Of a stretch of DNA of 64,000 nt, positions 4,373 to 59,190 are shown piece by piece; position 1 is the first letter of the stretch, and the number at the start of each line of letters is the position of its first letter. The translations under genes and the position numbers were made by a program. Source of the stretch: a virus; IMG/VR virus record IMGVR_UViG_3300029305_003442. The stretch is one strand, 5' to 3'. The notes below the pieces were generated by a model, which did not search any database, was not told the origin of the DNA, and was given only the letters and a program-made list of their open reading frames with translations.

Positions 4373-5284
4373 ATGGCAACAATGAGTAAAATGACTTTAA
4401 TTAAACCTGTTGGTGATACAACAGTATCTTATGAAGGAGAATATATTAAAGATGAATATGGAACAGAATCTAAATCATCAGCCTCTAGCGGAGATAGAGT
4501 AAGACGAGAAAGAAATTTTGTAGCACAACGAAAAGGACCTATAGATGAATGGGATGATGGAACTACTGGAAATTATGCGCGAATTGAAGGTGGTAATGGC
4601 TCAGAAACCCAAACTTTATATGGAAGATATAGATATTAGTATAGAATTGGAAAATGGTATTGGAAAATTACACAATCATCTGAATTTAACGATCGTACTG
4701 GTACAGTAAGTTCTTTAAATGAAATTCCAGATGATTATACAACAACTTCTAATGGTAATAGATATACTTATACTTATACATGGGATTCTCGTACAATAAA
4801 AGATGGATATTGGAAAGATGATATAGATGAACCTTATGAAGATGAAAATGGAAATATTGTATAGCCAGAATGGATTGATACCAGCTATAAGGTTTATGAT
4901 TGGGAGGAATATTTACAAATAGAAACATTAACTATTGATTGGGATTCTTGGACTCCAGAATATACAAAAGAAGATATGAGTGTAGATTTTTATCCGCGTC
5001 CTAAAGAATTTTATTTTATTAATTGTGAACCAGGAAAGCAATGGAGAGTTGATTTAGGTCTTTAGACTTTAATTACTAATATTTATGAATTTCAAGAATA
5101 TGCTAATTAGTGGTAGGCTTGGAAAAAATAGGAGGAATATAGCAATACTCCATCATTTGATTCTCCACTTTCAGCTGCTAATATTAATTCAATTTATTCT
5201 TCTCTTGGTCATTCAGGAGGATATTCTTCAGGAAATGAAGTTAGAGCTAGTATATTTAAAGGATTGGAATCTATCATTAATTAA
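4373..5284 (+). CDS. Hypothetical virion-module protein (303 aa, about 6 in-frame TAG)
   Basis: ATG 4373 10 nt after upstream TGA; frame 2 open through TAGs to TAA 5282-5284. Confidence 0.5.
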
Positions 5285-5318
5285 TAAAAAAATAATTGAG
5301 ATAAAGGAGATATATATT

Positions 5319-5492
5319 ATGACTTATGAAGATATTCAAATATTAGTAAATATTTATAATACATTTTTAAGCGTTCATACATGTGGTGAAGATAGTTTTG
5401 CTATGACAGATTGTATGCGTGCTTTATATAAATTTATTGAAACTAAACAAAAGGAATATATAGAAAAGCAAAAAGAGAATAAGGAGGCTTAA
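5319..5492 (+). CDS. Small hypothetical protein (57 aa)
   Basis: AAGGAG 9 nt upstream of ATG 5319; ends TAA 5490-5492; stop overlaps next gene's SD. Confidence 0.45.
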   Translation: MTYEDIQILVNIYNTFLSVHTCGEDSFAMTDCMRALYKFIETKQKEYIEKQKENKEA

Positions 5493-5493
5493 T

Positions 5494-7740
5494 ATGAGCA
5501 AATTATATCCTCCAGTTATAGAGGGAATTATTCCAGCTTTTTATGCTAATGATGATGGGACAGCTAATTTAGTTGTCCCATTTTCTATGAATCCAACGGT
5601 TTCTTGGAATGAAGTTGGAAATATTAGATTACAATTAAAAACAGTTCAAAATTTAAATACTAGATTAGTTGATACTGGATATTATACAGATTATTCTCAA
5701 AAAGATAAAGTAATATTTTCTTTTACAGAGCAAGCAGTAAAAGAAAATTTAAATATTGGTTAGCATTATAAAGTATAGATAGCTTATCAAGATATTGATG
5801 GTGATGTCGGTTATTATTCTACTGTTGGTGTAACTAAATTTACAACAAAACCTACAATATATATTGAAAAATTAAATGAAGGAATAAAAAATTATCATCA
5901 GTATACTTATATTGGAGTATATTAGAATATTGATGATAAAACTGAAAAAGTTTATTCTTATGAATTTAATTTATATGATGAAAATGATAATTTAATTAAA
6001 GCATCTGGTGAATTAATTCATGACAATACTTAGAACACTTAGTTGGGTTCTTCTGAAGATAAATTTGATATTATGAATGATTTAGAAGAAGATAAAATTT
6101 ATTATTTGTAGTATAAAGTAACTACAATTAATGGATTAATTGAATATTCTCCTAAATATAAAATTGTCCAAAAGTAGAGTATTAATGTAGATATTGAAGG
6201 TAAATTGACTGCGGAAATAGATAATGAAAACGGGTGTGTGCGATTATTTATTAATACTGATAATTCAGTAATTGGTGATTTTAGTATTTTACGCTCTAGT
6301 ATTAAAGATAATTTTACTGAATGGCATGAACTATATAAATTTAGATTGTAGAGTCAATTAACACATAGTTTAGAATGGATTGATTTTAATGTAGAACATG
6401 GTGTAGAATATAAATATGCTTTATAGCAATTTAATTTGCATGGAATAAAATCAAATAAACAATTTTCTGTTAATATTATTCCATATTTAGAACATTCTTA
6501 TTTATATGATGGTGAGCGTTAGTTAAAAATTAAATTTAATCCTAAAGTTTCTTCTTTTAAAGATATTTTATTGGAACAAAAAACAAATACTATTGGTGGT
6601 AAATATCCTTTTATTTTTAGAAATGGAAATGTTTATTATAAAGAATTTCCAATATCAGGATTAATTTCATATCAAACAGATGAAGATTTTTTCTTTATTA
6701 AGCAATAGGAAGAATATAACCCAGTAACTGATTTAACTTATGAAAATATTAATAATGAAAAAGATTTTAAACTTGAAGTATTAAAATGGTTAAATAATGG
6801 AAAACCTAAACTATTTAAGTCGGCAACAGAAGGTAATTATATCGTAAGATTAATGAATGCGTCTTTGTCACCGACCGATTAGCTTGGCCGCATGCTCCAT
6901 ACTTTTAGTACAACTGCTTCTGAAATCGCAGATTATACATATAATAATTTATTAAAGTATAATATTGCGAGAATAAAAAATCCTATTTATTAGAATCTTA
7001 ATTGGAAAACTATTGATATTGCTACTGGATTAAGAGAAGATTATACTGTTAATTTTAATGAAAAAGAAATGTTATCTTTATTAATTGAGGATGGAACCCC
7101 AGAAGATTTAATTTTAATTATAAATGGTTAGAATTATGGTGATGCTAATCCAAATAATAATACATATATTGATAGTGACAGTAATGAAGTAGAAGAAGAA
7201 ACTGATGATGGATTAGATGATTCACATGAAAATACTTGGGTTGAAGGTGTCGGCACTAATAATTATGGTTTTATTGCTTAGTTAGATAAAAATGGTAAAT
7301 ATTATATAGATTTAAAAAACAATAATAAAATTACAGCAGTGCGTTTTATAGATAAATCAATTTAGCATAAAGGTTTATTAACATATGCTTATAATAATAT
7401 TGAAAAAAGTAATTTTGATTCAATTATTGATTATAGTTTAGAAAGTTTTTCAAATTCTTATGAAAATTAGATTTATGATATAATATCTGAAATTGAAGAT
7501 GAAAATACTACAATACAAAAAATTAATTATATTTATGCTACTGTAACTAGTTCCAATAGAGACACAACATTAAATTTTGATGGAAGAATAATTGATGTTA
7601 AAGATATTGGAGAATATAAGATGTATGATTTTGATAGAGTCAATTCTTTAATTTGCGGTGACGGACTTAGAGTTGATATTATGTGCGATATTCAAAAAGT
7701 TATTTATGAAGGAGGAGAAAATAATGAATCCTCTACTTGA
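5494..7740 (+). CDS. Virion structural protein (748 aa), tail/baseplate module, TAG-recoded
   Basis: AAGGAGG SD, ATG 5494; frame 1 open through about 20 TAG to TGA 7738-7740; 17-nt overlap with next gene. Confidence 0.6.
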
Positions 7741-30511: not shown

Positions 30512-30759
30512 ATTTTTTTGTGTAAAAAGTGTAAAAAATTTTAATTTTTGAGTATTTGATTTTTAAATTTACTTTTTGACATTCGGATTTTAAAAATAAA
30601 ATTGTAATTTTGAAAAATTGAATAAAAATTGTAAGGATGAAAAATCAGACAAAAAATGTGTGAGTGTTTCTTGTTTAAAAATCTGAAACAATTTTTATAT
30701 AGTAATGGAAGGGTAAGAGAAAAATAAAAAAAATGAATAAATACCTTGGAGGTGAATAT

Positions 30760-31236
30760 ATGAATTATCAATATAATCAGTAGCAGGTGAGTCCACCGCA
30801 GAATTAGACGACTCAGCAGTATTCTTACCAACGACAAGTTCCTTATACTTCTGGAACTTGGAATGCGAGAGTCAGACCGGTTTCTTCAATTGAAGAAGTA
30901 AGAGCATCTTCAATTGATTTTGATGGCTCAATTTTTTATTTCCCAGATGTTGCTAATAAAAAAATCTATACTAAATTTATTAATTTAGATGGCTCTGTGG
31001 CAATTAATGTATATGAGTTAAAAGAAATGCCAACAGGTTAGGCAGCAGATTCATCTTACATTACAAGAGAAGAATTTGAAAACGTAATTATGTAGTTAAA
31101 AATGATGTATAATAATTCTTCTGCGCCTTCTACTCCAATAGAAGAATAGCAATAGGTATAGTAGTAGATGAATAGTAATTAGTTTGCGGCACCACCCGCA
31201 CAATAGCAACATAATGTTTCGCCATTACAATTTTAA
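30760..31236 (+). CDS. Gln-rich protein (158 aa, 11 TAG codons clustered in poly-Q tracts)
   Basis: GGAGGTG SD; ATG 30760; frame 1 verified to TAA 31234-31236; GAA-TAG-CAA-TAG-GTA-TAG-TAG-TAG-ATG and CAA-TAG-CAA runs. Confidence 0.55.
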
Positions 31237-40466: not shown

Positions 40467-40692
40467 TTATGTCAATAGCCTCATCTTCATATTCATATTT
40501 TAATTGATTAGGTAATTCATTACGATAAAAAGTATATTTCCTTTTACAGGTAGGACAAAAATAAACATACTGTTCAGGATAAGTACATAAAACTTTACCA
40601 GTACTTTTTATTTCTTCATTACAATCTTCACAATAAAAGCTATCTATATAGATAGCTTTTACATATCGTCTTTTAATTTTCATCTTCTTCAA
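40453..40692 (-). CDS. Small zinc-ribbon protein (79 aa)
   Basis: CEDC...CPTC pairs. Confidence 0.4.
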   Translation of the reverse strand: MKKMKIKRRYVKAIYIDSFYCEDCNEEIKSTGKVLCTYPEQYVYFCPTCKRKYTFYRNELPNQLKYEYEDEAIDINEEV

Positions 40693-43180
40693 TTCCTCCT
40701 TGATAACGTTCCGAAGTTAATTTTAAATCAGTTTTATTTACAATTTCTTCAATTTTATACAACTGATGACCTGGCGTACTATTGTATTTTTTAACAATAA
40801 AATTATCTCCAGAACGAATACCCATAACCGCAATCATATTACCACGATTAAACCAAGATTTTTCTACAATCTTTTTAGTTCCATCAGGATTTTTGATAGA
40901 AATTTGTTTATCAAATAAAGAAAAATATTCTTTTCTAAATTTAACTTCTACAACTCCATGAGTTGTTAATAACGTTACTGTGCTTTTAACCTTATTTTTT
41001 GCTATACAGGTTCCGCAAATTTTATGAAGTTTAAACATATGAATTTCTTTTCCTCCACGAGCAAACACTTGGTCTACTATTGGTTCTTCTGGCAAAGCAA
41101 AGAAATCAACAAATCCATATTTATTATGATTTACATCAATTAATTCATGTTCGTGATAATAAAAACATAAAACTTCCATCTCCCAAGCAGAAATTGTACC
41201 TGAAGCATATTTCTCCCAATCTTCAAGAAAAACAGCATCATTTATTTTTACTAAGATTTCATCTTTATTTTCATTAATCCATGTTCTAAAAATATCCATC
41301 CAATTTTGATAAATTTTTTCCCATTGCTTAATATTCATAAAGAAAATTGTATCTTTTGTTATAATCAAATTATCACAATGTACTTCAATAAGAAAATTAA
41401 TAGCTCTTTCATCTAATTTATATAATTCATTATTAAATTTACAAATTGCTTTTAAATAACGATTAAATTCATATACTCTTCTTGCTAAAATTTGTTCTTC
41501 AGTTTCAGATGGAAGTAGATTATATTTAATTAATCCACCCATATTTTGTAGAGTAATTCTTTTTTTTCTATCGCAAGTTTCCCAAATATACCAAGCCATA
41601 CAAGTTTTACGTTCCATCATATCATCAAAAGCTCCACCCTTAATCAATGAAATCATAGCTTGCTTGCCTGGATTTACTTTATTCAAAAAATCTCGCGGAG
41701 ATACATAAGGTCTATGTTCAATGATAGATGCTACGACATCATCACCAACATTTAATAATCCTTTTAAACCAAAAAGAATTCTATTGTTCTCAGCATCTGG
41801 CGCAAAGCCATATTTAGATTTATTAATATTTGCTAAACTAACTTTAATACCAGCAGCTTGAATATCACCAATAGCTTTCGCAATTTTACCATAATCAGTA
41901 CTTGCGCCAGCTTCTTCATCAGTTGCGCCACTATTAACAATTAAACAAGCTGTATTCCAATAGATAGGATTAAATTTAGTTGCCAATAAAATTGTTTGAA
42001 TACCAACAAATGAATAAGGTAATGAATGATTTAAACTAAAAGCATATCCAAGTTGTGGAGCGACCGCAACTTCCCAGACATAATCTGCTATATTAGAATT
42101 TCCAATTTTTTCATACACTTGCGCTTTTAATTCCGGAATTTTTGACATCTGTTTTTTTGCTACTATTTTACGAGCAGCGTTTGCTTCACCTAAAGTAAAA
42201 TTAGCAACCTCCATCAAAATTTCCATCATTTGCTCTTGGATAGGACAGCAACCATAATATTTATCACAATGTTTATGCATTAACTCAATCATTTTTTCAG
42301 GCAAATGATTAAATTTCATTTCTTTATCAAAAATATTAATTCCTGATTTTTGAATGCGAGCATATCTATCTTGCTGACTTTCTTTACCTTTTTCAGACAT
42401 AAGTCTCATCATAGCATTTGCGGCAGTCATCTCTAAAGGATTTTGTGGTTTAAGTTTTTTCGCAATTGCTAATCCAACACCACCACTAAACTGAAATACA
42501 TCCAATATATCACCTGCGGCTAAATGATTCCAAATATAATTTTCAGATGTGTCAATTATTTCTGGATGAATATATTTATTATAAGTTTCTCTTAAACCAA
42601 TATTTTCAATTAAATTATCCTCATGTAACATTTCAAAACATTTAATAATTTTATCAGAAACTTCAGTTACAAGAAAATCATATTTAGTATCACCTGCTGC
42701 TTCCGCCGCATGTAAGTCAAAACAAGTAATTAAATCTCCATTTGGTGCTCTCATAAAAGATGCTGTATCAAATGGATTTTTATCATAAAGAATTACACCA
42801 GAAGCATGAATGCCACGTTTATTTACTAATCCCTCTATTGAAATGATAATATCAACCAATCCAGGATATTGATTAACTTCTTTTATAAAAGTTGTAACTG
42901 GTTTTCTATCTTTTTCTTCATCACCATATAATACTTCTGAAATAGACCATAAAAATCCACGTTCTTGAGGAATTAATGATGACATATATTGCGCTACATC
43001 TACATCTATTCCTTCTGGATATTCTTCACTTCTATAACCACGACAAGCTGTAAGAACAGCTGATTTAGTTCCTTCAGTTCCAAAAGTTGCTACCTGAACC
43101 AAACCAAATTCTCCACGTTCTTTACGAATTGCTTCAAAAATCGCTGGTCTTTTACTTGGAGCCAGGTCTATATCAATATC
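40673..43180 (-). CDS. dnaE: DNA polymerase III alpha (DnaE-type) exon 2 (835 aa; polymerase core), begins DIDIDLAPSKR...
   Basis: Reading frame of track ORF 40673-43102 is open upstream to 43180, where DIDID follows the exon-1 motif RFLNKERAELP; RGIHASGVIL palm motif; no TAG. Confidence 0.75.
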   Translation of the reverse strand, partial: DIDIDLAPSKRPAIFEAIRKERGEFGLVQVATFGTEGTKSAVLTACRGYRSEEYPEGIDVDVAQYMSSLIPQERGFLWSISEVLYGDEEKDRKPVTTFIKEVNQYPGLVDIIISIEGLVNKRGIHASGVILYDKNPFDTASFMRAPNGDLITCFDLHAAEAAGDTKYDFLVTEVSDKIIKCFEMLHEDNLIENIGLRETYNKYIHPEIIDTSENYIWNHLAAGDILDVFQFSGGVGLAIAKKLKPQNPLEMTAANAMMRLMSEKGKESQQDRYARIQKSGINIFDKEMKFNHLPEKMIELMHKHCDKYYGCCPIQEQMMEILMEVANFTLGEANAARKIVAKKQMSKIPELKAQVYEKIGNSNIADYVWEVAVAPQLGYAFSLNHSLPYSFVGIQTILLATKFNPIYWNTACLIVNSGATDEEAGASTDYGKIAKAIGDIQAAGIKVSLANINKSKYGFAPDAENNRILFGLKGLLNVGDDVVASIIEHRPYVSPRDFLNKVNPGKQAMISLIKGGAFDDMMERKTCMAWYIWETCDRKKRITLQNMGGLIKYNLLPSETEEQILARRVYEFNRYLKAICKFNNELYKLDERAINFLIEVHCDNLIITKDTIFFMNIKQWEKIYQNWMDIFRTWINENKDEILVKINDAVFLEDWEKYASGTISAWEMEVLCFYYHEHELIDVNHNKYGFVDFFALPEEPIVDQVFARGGKEIHMFKLHKICGTCIAKNKVKSTVTLLTTHGVVEVKFRKEYFSLFDKQISIKNPDGTKKIVEKSWFNRGNMIAVMGIRSGDNFIVKKYNSTPGHQLYKIEEIVNKTDLKLTSERYQGGIEEDEN

Positions 43181-44362
43181 CGTTTATTGGACTATATTTT
43201 TCATAATGACTTACTAAGAGCATTTTACTTCAGTCATTACTAGAACATCTTTCAGACGGTGCTTATCTCCGCCTTACATAAATAGTCTCTACACATTTAA
43301 TCTTATTTTTCTATTTGTTTCCAATAATAGCCTTTATATAAAGTTCCATTTTTAATCGCTTTATCTAATTGAGTGTGTCCTTTCATTCCTAAGAATTGTA
43401 AGACTGCGGTTTTAGCATTAAATATTTGAATTAAATTGTAATTTTCATCATACATTTCAATTCGTTTTCCATTTAATGCTTGATTACCACTTTTACCATA
43501 CATACCATTTTTTTCGCCAGCGGTTTTACCTTTACTATTTACAGACATTTTCTACTTAGACTCTTCTGTATGTTTTTTACCATACATTCCATTATTAGAA
43601 CCTTTTGTTTTTTCACTCATTTTTTGTTTAAACTCTTCAGTTCTATAAGGAGAGTTGTCTCTTTCAAATTCTGCCCAATAAGATAAAAATGCTTTAGTTT
43701 TTTCACTATGGTATTTTCCATACATTCCATTATTCTTACCACGATTTACTTCACTTAATTTTCGGCACAAAACTTCTTTTTCTTCTGGTGTATATCCTGC
43801 GGTAGTGTTTCCTCCACAACCGCCCTCATGAATATTATAAAACAATGGATTTGATGTGGCATTATATAAGGCAATAAATTGTTTTTCTTTTTCACTATTT
43901 TCTAAATCATTTTTAGAAACAAATAAAATGGACTTTGTAAAACAGTCTTTTCCATATTTGGCAATTTCTTTTTTCAATTCTTTTCCGCTGCCTAAATATG
44001 AATCATCTAATTCTCCATAATGTTTTCCGATATATTTCATACCATTTATATTATTAGTAGTTAAATAAATATAATGTTGTTTCATTTAAACAACCCCCTT
44101 TCATATATATTTAACTTTTAGAATTAGACAATGACCTGACTTTGTCCAAGATTTTTAGCACGGTATTCCCAATCTAACCTTTTTTAGGTCATAGGGTCTC
44201 TTAGTCAGTTGATTCGCATTTATATAACATAAATCTTATTTCGCTGATACCGTTAGCCTGCGGTTACTCGTCTCGCCGGTCGGATGACCGGGCCGCCGCA
44301 GACACCCATTAAGCAATGGTTAATGTTCTTTTTTTACAACTGCCCAATATCAATATTAGACT
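43181..44362 (-). ncRNA. Group I self-splicing intron (about 1182 nt) in dnaE, carrying a homing-endonuclease ORF
   Basis: 5' exon ends ...GAACUGCCU (44363); intron-internal guide GGGCAGUU (44345-44338) pairs with AACUGCCU giving U.G at the splice site; intron ends with G (43181) before exon-2 GAUAUUGAU; GC-rich structured segment 44150-44330 and 43200-43300 flanks the ORF. Confidence 0.65.
43303..44085 (-). CDS. Intron-encoded GIY-YIG homing endonuclease with NUMOD3-like repeats and C-terminal DNA-binding region; in-frame TAG at 43552-43554
   Basis: YIYLTTNNINGMKYIGKH GIY-YIG motif; repeated NNGMYGK(K/Y)H; track ORFs 43552-44085 and 43303-43548 are in the same frame separated by TAG + one codon. 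Confidence 0.7.
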
Positions 44363-45733
44363 AGGCAGTTCGGCTCTCTCTTTATTTAAAAATCTCCAAT
44401 AAGGGAGACCCCAACGAATTGGGTCAAGTTGAGTAATACCAAGCAAATAATTTGAAAGAAAACCGGTCGCAGAACCTCGTCCAGGTCCAACAATTGAACC
44501 GCATTCCCAAAACAAATCAATATAATGTTTAAAAGTATTGAAATAAGCGAAAAGACAATCATCAAGTTTTTCTCCAATAAACTTAATTACATCTGCCTCA
44601 ATTTCAATACGATTAATATATTCTTCATTAAATAAATTTTTATTTATTAATTCTTGTAGACATTCATTAATCCAATATCTTTCTTGAGATTCATCAGATA
44701 TTAAAAGTGATTTAATAATCGGCCAATTAGTATCTAATTCATCTTTTAATGAATTATTAATACCAAAATAAGATAAAGTTTTAGGATAATCTTTTACTTT
44801 TACTTTTGGAATAATTTGTTTTCTTTCAATTGAATAAAATTCAATTTTATTTTTTATTTCATTTGTATTATTTAAAATCCATTCTGAAATATCATCATCT
44901 TGATAAGCATATGTTAATAATTCTTTAGCTTCATTATAATCCATTAAACGAGCAAATTCATAAAATGAATCAACTTCTCGTTCTCCACCTTTAGAATTTA
45001 AATAAGCTTTATGAACCCATCTATCTTGACTTGTATAATAATGAGCATCAGTTCCTGCGACTAATTTAATTCCAAAAGATTGAGAAATAGAGTATAATTT
45101 TTTATTAACCAATACTTGGTCTTTTGTAGTTGCTGGGGCGCATTCTAAATAGAAATCATCACCAAATAATTCAAGACAATAATTAATAAAATCAATTATT
45201 TTTGAATAATATACTTTCATTGTTTCCATGTCTTGAACTTCTTCAGCTAAACAAAATTGTAATAAATTTGATGATAATTCTCCACCAAGACAAGCTGTTG
45301 TAGCTATTAAATGTCCTTTATATTTATTAACAATAGTTGATAATTCTTTTTTTAAAACTGGAACTCTTTCCATTTTTCTATCAACATATAAATTATACCA
45401 AGCTATTGAACTTAATTCTTTTAATGCCATATAACCAATTTTATCTTTGGCAATTAAAATAAAGTGATAATATTTTTGACCACTACTTCTATCATCTGTT
45501 AAATAAATTTCATTACCAAGTGCAATTGTAAAATCTGGATTTGTCTCTCTCAATTTCTTAGCATATTGATTTACTTCCATGTGCGCAGATAAACATTCAT
45601 GGTCTGTAATTGCTATACCGTTTAAACCCAATTCAATTGCTTTATCAATTAAATCTTTAGGTCTATTTATACAATCAAGTAAGCGAATATTTGAATACAT
45701 TGTATGATTATGACAATTAAAATAACTGTTCAT
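44363..45733 (-). CDS. dnaE: DNA polymerase III alpha (DnaE-type) exon 1 (457 codons; PHP domain)
   Basis: MNSYFNCHNHTMYS...GIAITDHE PHP motifs; WRFLNKERAELP at exon end; track ORF 44309-45733 runs on into intron for 17 codons. Confidence 0.75.
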
Positions 45734-57465: not shown

Positions 57466-57768
57466 TTAATCATCCTCACTTAAAGTATATCCAGCAATAG
57501 AATTTTTATAACAATAATGTTGAGTTAAACGTTTCATAAACATTTCTAATTCATCAATATAAAAAATTTTATCTTCTTCCCATTCATCTAAATGGTCTTC
57601 AATAAAATCTGAATAAGAAACAAATTCAATACCAATGATACCATAAGCTTTAGCCTTTTCACTTAAAGCAATTGGATTTGCGCAAATAATTGCGCCATTT
57701 GTTTCTTTTGCTTTAAGCATAAGCTTTTTTGTCTTTCCACTTCCGCGGGAATCAATAACTCTAAACAT
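57466..57768 (-). CDS. Hypothetical protein (100 aa)
   Basis: Track ORF. Confidence 0.4.
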   Translation of the reverse strand: MFRVIDSRGSGKTKKLMLKAKETNGAIICANPIALSEKAKAYGIIGIEFVSYSDFIEDHLDEWEEDKIFYIDELEMFMKRLTQHYCYKNSIAGYTLSEDD

Positions 57769-57769
57769 A

Positions 57770-58759
57770 TTATTTGTTACCTCGTGTCATATTATAACCA
57801 AATGTTTCACTTTGATAATATTTAATCCAAAATTTTTCTTTTTCATTAAGTTGCGTTCTATCACATTCTTCAAGAATTTCAAAAGAGAAATTTTCTACTT
57901 TATCACTTTTCATAGCAGTATATAATTTATTGTTTGAACCATCAATACCTAAACCAGCTTTAATATGTGTTTTAAATCTATCAGCAATATTAACTGATTG
58001 TCCTATATAACACATTTGATTATTTAAATTAGTAATTTTATAAATACCAATTTTATTTTCTGTACCTATTAATCTGCCAATTAAATCACTTGTAGGTTTT
58101 TCATAATAAGTTTTCCAAATAATTTTATTTAATGGTTCTTCATTTCTTAAATAAGGAATTATTGAACGCAATTTTTCAATTTCATTTTTATCTGTATCAG
58201 ATAATTGTATTTTATAAAATTCTTTTTTATTGTTTTCTTCTAAAGTTCTTTTATTCGCTTGAATAGCCGCATTTACAATAGAAGTCTAATCATTAATTTT
58301 TTGTTCCAAAAGAGATAAAGTATCCTAATGCTATTTTATAGTTTCTGCGGTTTGCTGCGCAAGTTCTTCCATTAAATTAAAATATTCTTCTTCACATTGC
58401 TTTTTATTCTTTTCAAATTCAATTCGCATATTTTCAGTAGATAATTCAAATTCTTTTTCCGCAATCTATTTACTTTGTTTATAAATAACTTCTCCAGCTT
58501 GCTTTGCCTATTCTTCAATTAACATAATACTTTTCTATGTCTCTTCTCTTTTGGATTCTAAAAATTTTATATTTCCTTTTAAATTTAAAGAATCTAATTT
58601 TAATGATTGATTTTCATTTGTCAATATTTCATTTTCTTTTTGTAATTCTTCGTTTTTAAATGCTATTTCTTTATTATAAGTAATATTTTTTTTACCTTTT
58701 AATAAATAAAAACAAAGCATTCCAAATAGAAAACTTAAAATACATAAAAATATTGTCAT
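57770..58759 (-). CDS. TM-anchored coiled-coil protein with C-terminal GIY-YIG nuclease domain (329 aa, 6 in-frame TAG)
   Basis: Track ORFs 58535-58759 (TM + coiled coil) and 57770-58171 (IGIYKITNLNNQMCYIGQSVNIADRFKTH) are in one frame (990 nt); intervening 122 codons verified open except TAG. Confidence 0.5.
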
Positions 58760-58814
58760 ATTTTAGAAAAATTAAGGGATAGATGTTTAGTCTATCCCTA
58801 TATTTATATTATAA

Positions 58815-59084
58815 TTATTCTGCTTCCTCAGCATCAGGGTCAAAACTCATACCTGCAGGAGTAAGGGACAAGAACTTAACTGCCTTGTGAGTACCATCAT
58901 CCAACTCAATTTCAGCAGGAGTACGAAGACCAAGACCCTTTCTCTGGATAGCAGAGGTAAAAATGCCATCTACCTAACGCTTTTCAATACCAAGTGCCTC
59001 TGCAACATCAGCAGCAGTAACATTAGCACCATTAACTTCCTTCAAATAATTAAGAACCTTCTTAGAATTTTCCTTCATAGCCAT
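58815..59084 (-). CDS. Hypothetical protein (89 aa, 1 TAG), GC-richer
   Basis: AGGAGA SD; ATG 59084; verified to TAA 58815-58817. Confidence 0.4.
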
Positions 59085-59161: not shown

Positions 59162-59190
59162 ATTATACCAAAAAATTTTTTAAATGTCAA
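59162..59190 (-). promoter_or_regulatory. Perfect consensus promoter TTGACA-17-TATAAT (minus)
   Basis: fwd tgtcaa 59185-59190, attata 59162-59167. Confidence 0.5.

Follow-up and report, generated by a model that had tools for sequence, protein, structure and literature searches.

Can a 990-nt reading frame that is broken six times by TAG encode a single protein, and what use might a phage have for it? The question arises at positions 57770–58759, on the minus strand, of a 64,000-nucleotide (nt) stretch of virus DNA from IMG/VR (record IMGVR_UViG_3300029305_003442), which is called the window below. Working from the letters alone, the original prediction had taken this frame for one gene of a membrane-tethered, coiled-coil GIY-YIG nuclease in which TAG is read as glutamine (Gln). 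We find that both the observation and its architectural interpretation are correct. The locus holds a single open reading frame (ORF) with a defined domain architecture, intact catalytic residues, a conserved position in the genome and a selective enrichment in TAG, all of them observed directly, and more than 100 full-length homologues of about 290–360 amino acids (aa) have the same architecture. What the protein would do, to which substrate and when during infection, and how it would lie in the membrane, we propose on the basis of prediction and analogy. Coordinates refer to the minus strand unless stated otherwise.

Translation of 57770–58759 gives 329 codons followed by a stop (ATG at 58759–58757, TAA at 57772–57770), and the only internal stops are six TAGs, at codons 75, 84, 98, 143, 145 and 158 (58535–58537, 58508–58510, 58466–58468, 58331–58333, 58325–58327 and 58286–58288), all of which fall inside the stalk described below. 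With TAG read as Gln, this is the complete coding sequence (CDS) of a 329-aa membrane-tethered GIY-YIG nuclease. The frame is thus broken by TAG and by nothing else, as had been predicted, and the pieces left by the standard code are also those first described (58535–58759, 74 aa from an ATG, and 57770–58171, 133 aa from a TTG); the gap between them, given earlier as 122 codons, is in fact 363 nt, or 121 codons. TAA and TGA make up 6.3% of triplets in the window sequence (28% G+C). Since a run of 330 codons free of both has a probability of 4.6e-10 per position, or ~6e-5 across the window and both strands, the frame is not a chance event. Nor is it the only one of its kind: when TAG is counted as sense, the summed length of ORFs of at least 100 aa rises from 15.6k to 22.8k residues, and plus-strand genes reach 2,050 codons with up to 25 in-frame TAGs. 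The phage represented by the window uses TAG as a sense codon.

The frame could still be incidental, its parts being separate genes or the 133-aa nuclease being made alone from an internal start. GenBank divides the homologue of Phass-1 (OQ749652.1; L001), a 136-kb phage using code 15, in just this way, into two hypothetical proteins of 47 and 144 aa, and the window does contain the TTG-initiated 133-aa ORF. Read through, the Phass-1 homologue (4467–5447) is one frame with eight TAGs. Other related loci in IMG/VR are of two kinds. In the non-recoded kind (L002, L003, L006–L009) the whole protein is one ordinary ORF without any TAG, so the fused architecture first proposed for the window is found there as an uninterrupted gene. 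In the recoded kind, the nuclease gene carries 6–16 in-frame TAGs. In several of these relatives the sequence of the nuclease domain is itself broken by TAG (LLE*C, FWI*MY and NIA*RWK are examples), which makes a stand-alone nuclease translated by the standard code impossible in them. In the window, protein conservation spans all six TAGs, and the conserved module ahead of the nuclease reaches upstream past the TTG of the 133-aa piece, to the TAG at codon 158. The internal start, raised as a possibility from the beginning, consists of a TTG only, with no ATG and no obvious Shine-Dalgarno sequence, and sigma-70-like promoter matches in the region around the gene (18, versus 14.4 in shuffled sequence) are not above chance. 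Because the ORFs of non-recoded relatives are intact, the TAGs of recoded ones fall within the domain, no ATG is present and the conserved module begins upstream of the TTG, an independent 133-aa nuclease is unsupported; together with the ~6e-5 chance of the frame, this leaves the separate-gene explanation with almost no probability. Annotation in the standard code breaks the gene into fragments, as in the GenBank entry for Phass-1, and so conceals its architecture.

The amino acid inserted at TAG can be read from the homologues. Of the residues that homologues have in the six TAG columns, 27% are Gln against a background of 6.6%, and at codon 84 Gln occupies the column in 49 of 63 homologues; this support is partly circular, as many database homologues were themselves called with TAG as Gln. 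Non-recoded relatives have Gln or Glu opposite the TAG sites of recoded ones. The alignment of TAG with Gln and the genome-wide use of TAG as sense both agree with genetic code 15 (TAG = Gln). A near copy of the window protein (99.7% identity) is present in public gene calls as a 316-aa product started at Met14.

What does the single gene encode? The protein opens with a predicted transmembrane (TM) anchor (residues 2–20, 58700–58756; TIFLCILSFLFGMLCFYLL, then KGKK) whose 19 residues have a Kyte-Doolittle mean of 2.46. Among 64 family members, a hydrophobic segment begins within the first six residues in 61 and follows a longer called N-terminus in another two; in a wider member set, an N-terminal TM helix is found in 234 of 262. 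Lysine and arginine in the 64 members number ~0.4 on the N-terminal side of the helix versus 3.1 in the next 12 residues, and because of this positive-inside pattern we predict that the N-terminus lies outside and the C-terminus inside the cell. Behind the anchor, residues about 21–181 (58217–58699) are predicted from AlphaFold2 and sequence periodicity to form a cytoplasmic alpha-helical stalk with likely coiled-coil stretches. AlphaFold2 was run with the 64-sequence alignment on P0001, a protein that differs from the window protein by one residue and is without its first 13 aa (half of the TM helix). The model, with a mean predicted local distance difference test score (pLDDT) of 90.7, shows one continuous helix over residues 2–168 of P0001 (15–181 of the window protein), for the most part at pLDDT >90. 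Residues 25–182 contain no proline, are 34% charged and have a hydrophobic periodicity of ~6.75 residues, with an enrichment at a/d positions of z = 2.5 versus shuffles. The stalk is therefore likely to be a helical rod with coiled-coil stretches, ~160 residues long, which would measure ~24 nm if straight. The spacing from the TM helix to the GIY-YIG domain is tightly kept in the family (median 218 aa, interquartile range 209–223). For the protein with TAG read as Gln, these predictions bear out the TM helix and coiled coil originally proposed.

Between stalk and nuclease lies a conserved module at residues about 165–235 (58055–58267), with the pattern AAIQANKR...FYKIQLS..D..EIEKLR...PYLRN.EPLNKIIWKTYYEKP.SDLIGRLIG, in which AlphaFold2 places a short strand at ~183 and helices at ~188–198 and ~208–230, packed ahead of the nuclease. 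Y182, K212 and R229 are invariant, R171, F181, D190, E193, I214, W215, Y218, Y219, D225, L226 and G232 nearly so, and the module matches no Pfam family. The protein ends in a GIY-YIG catalytic domain of the I-TevI type (residues 236–327, 57779–58054). PF01541 matches residues 237–323 (E-value 1.4e-9; 38.6 bits versus a cutoff of 22.6), and TIGR01453 reaches 68 bits versus a cutoff of 56.05 while covering the catalytic part of that model alone (positions 1–88 of 215). Y240, Y251, R261, H265 and E308, which correspond to Y6, Y17, R27, H31 and E75 of I-TevI, are invariant in all 64 members, and the domain has the fold of the GIY-YIG superfamily together with its catalytic Tyr, Tyr, Arg, His, Glu and Asn. 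The nearest structure to this nuclease head is I-TevI (PDB 1ln0, 1mk0). No NUMOD, IENR, helix-turn-helix (HTH) or other DNA-binding module was detected in any of the 64 members, in all of which PF01541 alone was found. Judged by these sequence features, the head would be of a catalytically active type that is not sequence-specific.

How widespread is such a protein? Searched against 5.8 billion proteins, the window protein had 2,757 matches. The best 120 are mostly full-length and share 39–60% identity with the query across the greater part of it, two being shorter fragments (226 and 229 aa), and an exhaustive profile search yielded 1,018 clusters at 50% identity with E-values of 1e-30 or better. 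The family is large, uncharacterised and unnamed, its database label being just 'GIY-YIG'. The architecture had been called uncommon, which holds when it is set beside characterised phage GIY-YIG enzymes; it is not rare, with ~1,000 clusters and an analogue in the defence protein SNIPE (PMC13190303). At the nucleotide level, 55–62 kb of the window had no match in 50,697 phage records. By tblastn, Phass-1 was the only match extending beyond the nuclease domain, and in isolate genomes matches were limited to that domain. The contigs that carry the gene range from <3 kb up to 185 kb, the longest being 120–185 kb, and the phage genome probably has a size of 120–185 kb. A bacterial, non-phage home was considered and rejected: full-length matches in genome collections are all on contigs of metagenome-assembled genomes, 2.8 to 176 kb long (several of 120–176 kb), which are most likely mis-binned low-G+C phage DNA. 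The bins holding this lineage belong to many unrelated taxa, Methanobrevibacter and Melainabacteria among them.

In the window, the nuclease gene stands in a minus-strand block ordered as topoisomerase subunit, NAD-ligase, two small genes, nuclease, a 100-aa gene, phrog_6721, winged-helix regulator, YorF-like, Sak4-like annealase, YorH-like and DnaB, with a RecJ-like exonuclease, a helicase and a split polymerase III (PolIII) alpha farther along the same replication and recombination block. The order topoA, ligase, g58815, nuclease, g56639, winged HTH, g55254, Sak4, g53616, DnaB recurs in >30 viral contigs, where the neighbouring proteins are only 35–67% identical, and is found again in a metagenome contig of 183 kb. 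As the locus is unchanged while its neighbours diverge this far, the gene is a vertically inherited core gene and not a homing element; more precisely, it is a conserved core gene of an SPbeta-like replication module.

This arrangement bears on the idea that the protein is a mobile GIY-YIG homing endonuclease with an odd N-terminus. Its best family matches (TIGR01453, phrog_314/7168/5123 and the PADLOC HEase model) and its closest structure, I-TevI, lie in that direction, and recoding of such a gene within an early gene has been described. I-TevI and the free-standing GIY-YIG homing endonucleases (TIGR01453; PDB 1ln0, 1mk0) are, however, soluble and mobile, and consist of an N-terminal GIY-YIG domain, a linker and a DNA-binding domain, whereas the window protein has the reverse order, with its nuclease at the C-terminus, is anchored in the membrane through a conserved TM helix and stalk, and lacks a NUMOD, IENR1 or HTH module. 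Neither the domain order nor the mobility of homing endonucleases was found: the gene keeps the same locus in dozens of genomes, a pattern of vertical inheritance. The window even has a genuine member of that class for comparison, a classical free-standing enzyme of 260 aa with one TAG (43303–44085), in which an N-terminal GIY-YIG domain is followed by NUMOD3 repeats. Synteny has thus already largely refuted a homing function for the tethered protein, and we attach very little probability to it. The ORFs flanking the classical endonuclease, 44309–45733 and 40673–42985, resemble the N-terminal (PHP) part and the remainder, respectively, of a PolIII-alpha/YorL-type polymerase, a gene that seems to have been split by endonuclease insertion or by an intron; no group I intron was found there by Rfam at gathering thresholds, at which nothing was detected anywhere in the window.

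Within its block, the nuclease gene stands apart by its use of TAG. The other 28 genes of the minus-strand block (36433–64000) contain ten TAGs in 8,093 codons (1.24 per 1000), and the large replication enzymes contain none; the nuclease gene has six in 329 codons (18.2 per 1000; Poisson P = 4e-6 versus the rest of the block). This density is like that of the late structural genes, the plus-strand genes from 1 to 29.7 kb having 11–23 TAG per 1000 codons. Relatives repeat the pattern: in 15 of 15 recoded loci the nuclease gene is the most TAG-dense within its neighbourhood of ~8 kb, at 20–50 TAG per 1000 codons versus 0–7 for the pooled neighbours, and two recoded loci have neighbours without any TAG next to a nuclease gene with 11. 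Selective recoding of the nuclease gene is a new and robust observation. It offers a clean natural case in which a single gene within an otherwise standard-code module is recoded, and this makes the proposal that recoding times hazardous proteins directly testable. The densest TAG ORF of the window is another one, 30733–31236 on the plus strand, with 11 TAGs in 167 codons (three of them consecutive) and Gln-rich ends; it is placed where the plus-strand late block meets the minus-strand block.

A second conserved feature lies directly upstream. An intrinsic-terminator-like hairpin at 58775–58799, with a 9-bp stem followed by TTAATTTTT, ends 15 nt ahead of the nuclease ATG; its fold energy is -16.5 kcal/mol (z = -2.7), and it follows the strongly promoted gene g58815. 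In 20 of 21 related loci, a hairpin with a T-tract, its stem sequence differing from locus to locus, separates the nuclease gene from the g58815 homologue. In a published model, the expression of late, lysis and nuclease genes has to wait for the code switch because of their recoded stops (10.1101/2021.08.26.457843). Because TAG enrichment, terminator and this model point the same way, they suggest low-level synthesis of the full-length nuclease, beginning only when TAG suppression is in place.

A late membrane protein co-regulated with lysis genes might also serve lysis or the end of infection, for instance by clearing unpackaged DNA or by acting at the membrane. The TAG density of the gene does resemble that of late genes, and the classes for which preferential recoding has been reported are lysis genes and strongly recoded TM-domain proteins. 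Yet in every relative examined the gene belongs to the replication module and never to a lysis cassette, and a holin- or spanin-like function would leave the invariant nuclease active site unexplained. We consider a part in lysis improbable.

The genes on either side give some indication of context. Upstream, g58815 (58815–59084) encodes a small acidic protein of 89 aa with one in-frame TAG and weak Z-alpha/winged-helix similarity, and is preceded by a perfect extended sigma-70 promoter (59162–59190; TTGACA-17-TATAAT with TG) and an AGGAG ribosome-binding site; judged by these features, it looks like a highly expressed DNA-binding protein. In most relatives, though not in Phass-1, g58815 is kept directly upstream of the nuclease gene at 46–67% identity. 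Downstream, a 100-aa ORF (57466–57768) with a GSGKT P-loop-like motif and a match to phrog_1828 starts 1 nt past the nuclease stop (TAA-T-ATG) and is probably translationally coupled to the nuclease gene; tblastn found no counterpart of it in the IMG/VR relatives. The closest contigs (L129, L131) have an ORF of 90–100 aa at the same position. YorF and YorH, Pfam families named after the Bacillus phage SPbeta, are present in the replication module together with the RecJ-like exonuclease, which suggests a distant SPbeta-like lineage. The YorF and YorH families, the consensus sigma-70 promoters with extended -10 elements and the AGGAG ribosome-binding sites lead us to infer a host among the Bacillota. 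No tRNA genes were found within the 64-kb window, despite the heavy sense use of TAG, so that a suppressor tRNA, if present, must lie elsewhere in the genome. Phass-1 has a tRNA-Leu and two suppressor tRNA(CTA) genes 300–570 nt downstream of the nuclease gene on the same strand (5749–6010). A general link between the gene and suppressor tRNAs was rejected, as tRNA lies near the gene in Phass-1 alone and at none of 21 other related loci.

What, then, would a phage do with a nuclease tied to the membrane? The closest experimental parallel is SNIPE (PD-lambda-1) of E. coli, a membrane-bound GIY-YIG nuclease that cuts phage DNA during injection (Saxton et al., Nature 2026; PMC13190303). By analogy with it, we tentatively propose that the window protein is a membrane-tethered nuclease for superinfection exclusion, gated by the code switch. 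Of the two roles originally suggested, superinfection exclusion and host-DNA degradation, we thus favour the former. The short N-terminal helix would anchor a single-pass protein in the host cytoplasmic membrane, with the N-terminus outside and the remainder inside, and the stalk and small helical module would hold the I-TevI-type head in the cytoplasm, close to the membrane. As the head has no sequence-reading DNA-binding domain, its choice of substrate would have to depend on location and on any partners. As the codons past 74 require TAG to be read as Gln, and a conserved terminator stands upstream, the head would appear at a low level and only in a cell that decodes TAG. There it may cut DNA emerging at the inner face of the membrane, chiefly the genomes of competing phages, in the manner of SNIPE. 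The phage's own replicating DNA would be spared through distance, and the delay in translation would keep the nuclease away from the phage's own genome during its entry.

Several observations weigh against this proposal. Exclusion genes are usually accessory and early, whereas the nuclease gene is a fixed core gene that looks late-translated; no suppressor tRNA gene lies within the 64 kb; and the membrane topology is inferred through the positive-inside rule only. Homology to SNIPE was also sought and rejected. To recover a SNIPE sequence, E. coli genomes were searched with a published mutagenesis primer, which led to WP_109866709, a 500-aa 'DUF4041 domain-containing protein' encoded at 1276–2778 of L128 (E. 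coli 118UI, NZ_CP032515.1). Aligned by hhalign, the window family reaches a probability of 1.9% versus this sequence and of 12.7% versus a 32-sequence SNIPE alignment; both alignments are confined to the helix preceding the nuclease and leave the DUF4041 region unaligned. PF13250 (DUF4041), which all true SNIPE homologues have, gives no match to the window protein at E-values up to 1 and does not appear among the 25 families matched by most of the 64 members. The nuclease subtype differs as well, T5orf172/MUG113 (PF10544, PF13455) being unmatched and the head matching PF01541, and the PADLOC PD-Lambda-1 model matches neither the window protein nor any of ten members scanned singly (E-values up to 10).

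The same setting in the replication module can be read differently, as the site of a nuclease for the phage's own DNA at the membrane. A late, structure-specific enzyme would then debranch or resolve intermediates before packaging, or process concatemers, in an RmuC-like layout with a GIY-YIG head. RmuC has an N-terminal TM anchor, a long coiled coil and a C-terminal PD-(D/E)XK nuclease, and acts in the context of DNA recombination; the window protein shares this design of anchor, coiled coil and C-terminal nuclease but has the unrelated GIY-YIG fold. The fixed site between topoisomerase/NAD-ligase and the YorF-like, Sak4-like annealase, YorH-like and DnaB genes favours such a function, and core-gene behaviour with a tightly kept stalk length fits housekeeping. 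Late translation agrees with the timing of known phage debranching enzymes, T4 endo VII and T7 endo I, which act late, and Slx1-type GIY-YIG enzymes are structure-specific. The PADLOC RmuC-type model gives weak N-terminal matches in 11 of the 64 members. These matches, however, are placed where the composition is biased, in TM and coiled-coil regions, and the RmuC family of Pfam matches neither the window protein nor any of the 64 members; PADLOC matches to ZorA, JetC, LmuB and similar models, which also fall in the coiled coil, were treated as compositional. The head, moreover, is closest to the non-specific I-TevI catalytic domain and not to Slx1 or UvrC, there is no evidence of membrane replication in this lineage, and we know of no membrane-anchored resolvase that could serve as a precedent. 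On balance, we think own-DNA metabolism unlikely, while giving it more weight than a part in lysis.

Degradation of host DNA would be another use for an active-type head without a sequence-recognition domain, and the gene does adjoin genes of nucleotide and DNA metabolism. The protein would nick or cut the chromosome, like T4 EndoII, for shut-off and nucleotide recycling, and the tether would limit damage to phage DNA. T4 endonuclease II (DenA; PDB 2wsh), with 18% identity, is nevertheless soluble, small and early, and has no TM helix or stalk; host-DNA degradation is normally the work of early, soluble enzymes, whereas the nuclease gene is TAG-gated and stands behind a terminator. A tether of ~24 nm would reach a small part of the nucleoid only, and SNIPE, in the study describing it, left host DNA uncut when this was brought to the membrane. 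No protective DNA-modification genes were seen among the proteins scanned, in a scan that was not exhaustive. This role therefore appears rather improbable, slightly more so than own-DNA metabolism.

A bolder form of the exclusion proposal concerns the family as a whole, and we regard it as possible though doubtful. The family, widespread among gut phages and restricted to them, would then consist of code-switch-gated membrane-tethered nucleases with an origin independent of that of SNIPE, put together from a membrane anchor, a rigid fixed-length stalk and an I-TevI-type catalytic domain, and its members would destroy DNA entering the infected cell. TAGs and terminator would act as a safety lock that opens only after the phage has brought its whole genome in and the cell has come to read TAG as Gln. 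In that case membrane nucleases would have come twice in evolution to separate self from non-self by location, and the recoding of stop codons would serve to time a dangerous enzyme outside the structural and lysis modules.

Placed beside known systems, the window protein most resembles SNIPE in design. Uzume (UzuA) and PD-T4-3, single-gene GIY-YIG defence systems, are matched over the nuclease domain only and more weakly than the homing-endonuclease models, and the window protein itself has no UzuA match. SNIPE consists of a single-pass TM helix with the N-terminus outside, a central DUF4041, a helix and a C-terminal cytoplasmic GIY-YIG nuclease, and becomes toxic when its TM helix is removed (PMC13190303); HHpred in the original screen placed DUF4041 at 197–252 and T5orf172 at 357–448. 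DUF4041 binds DNA and probably the tape measure protein. Both SNIPE and the window protein are single polypeptides with an N-terminal single-pass TM helix, a long helical body, predicted to be cytoplasmic in the window protein, and a C-terminal nuclease of the GIY-YIG superfamily; the TM helix is conserved in the window family, and the positive-inside rule predicts the same topology for it. The specificity of SNIPE is set by membrane location and not by DNA sequence, and the window protein appears to follow the same design. The two differ in length (329 aa versus 500 aa) and in constraint, the stalk being tightly conserved in length in the window family while SNIPE's N-terminal parts vary. The window gene is a core replication-module gene of a large phage, whereas SNIPE is a moron or defence gene, and, unlike SNIPE, recoded members of the window family have their translation gated by in-frame TAGs. 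The recovered SNIPE gene itself belongs to a lambdoid prophage, where it is flanked by a P22AR-type antirepressor-like gene and ren/P/O, so phage-borne versions of the membrane-nuclease strategy exist. The SNIPE primer site occurs in 131 of 5,426 complete E. coli genomes, every time on the chromosome. Going by sequence comparison, the window protein is not a member of the SNIPE family; it shares the overall layout but is either independent of SNIPE or very distantly related to it. In conclusion, this architecture has one experimentally studied analogue, SNIPE, to which it is not detectably homologous. Membrane nucleases that tell self from non-self by location were demonstrated experimentally only in 2026, with SNIPE, and the same design is met here in a sequence-unrelated family that counts ~1,000 clusters at 50% identity and has a fixed place in the replication module of large gut phages as yet uncultured.

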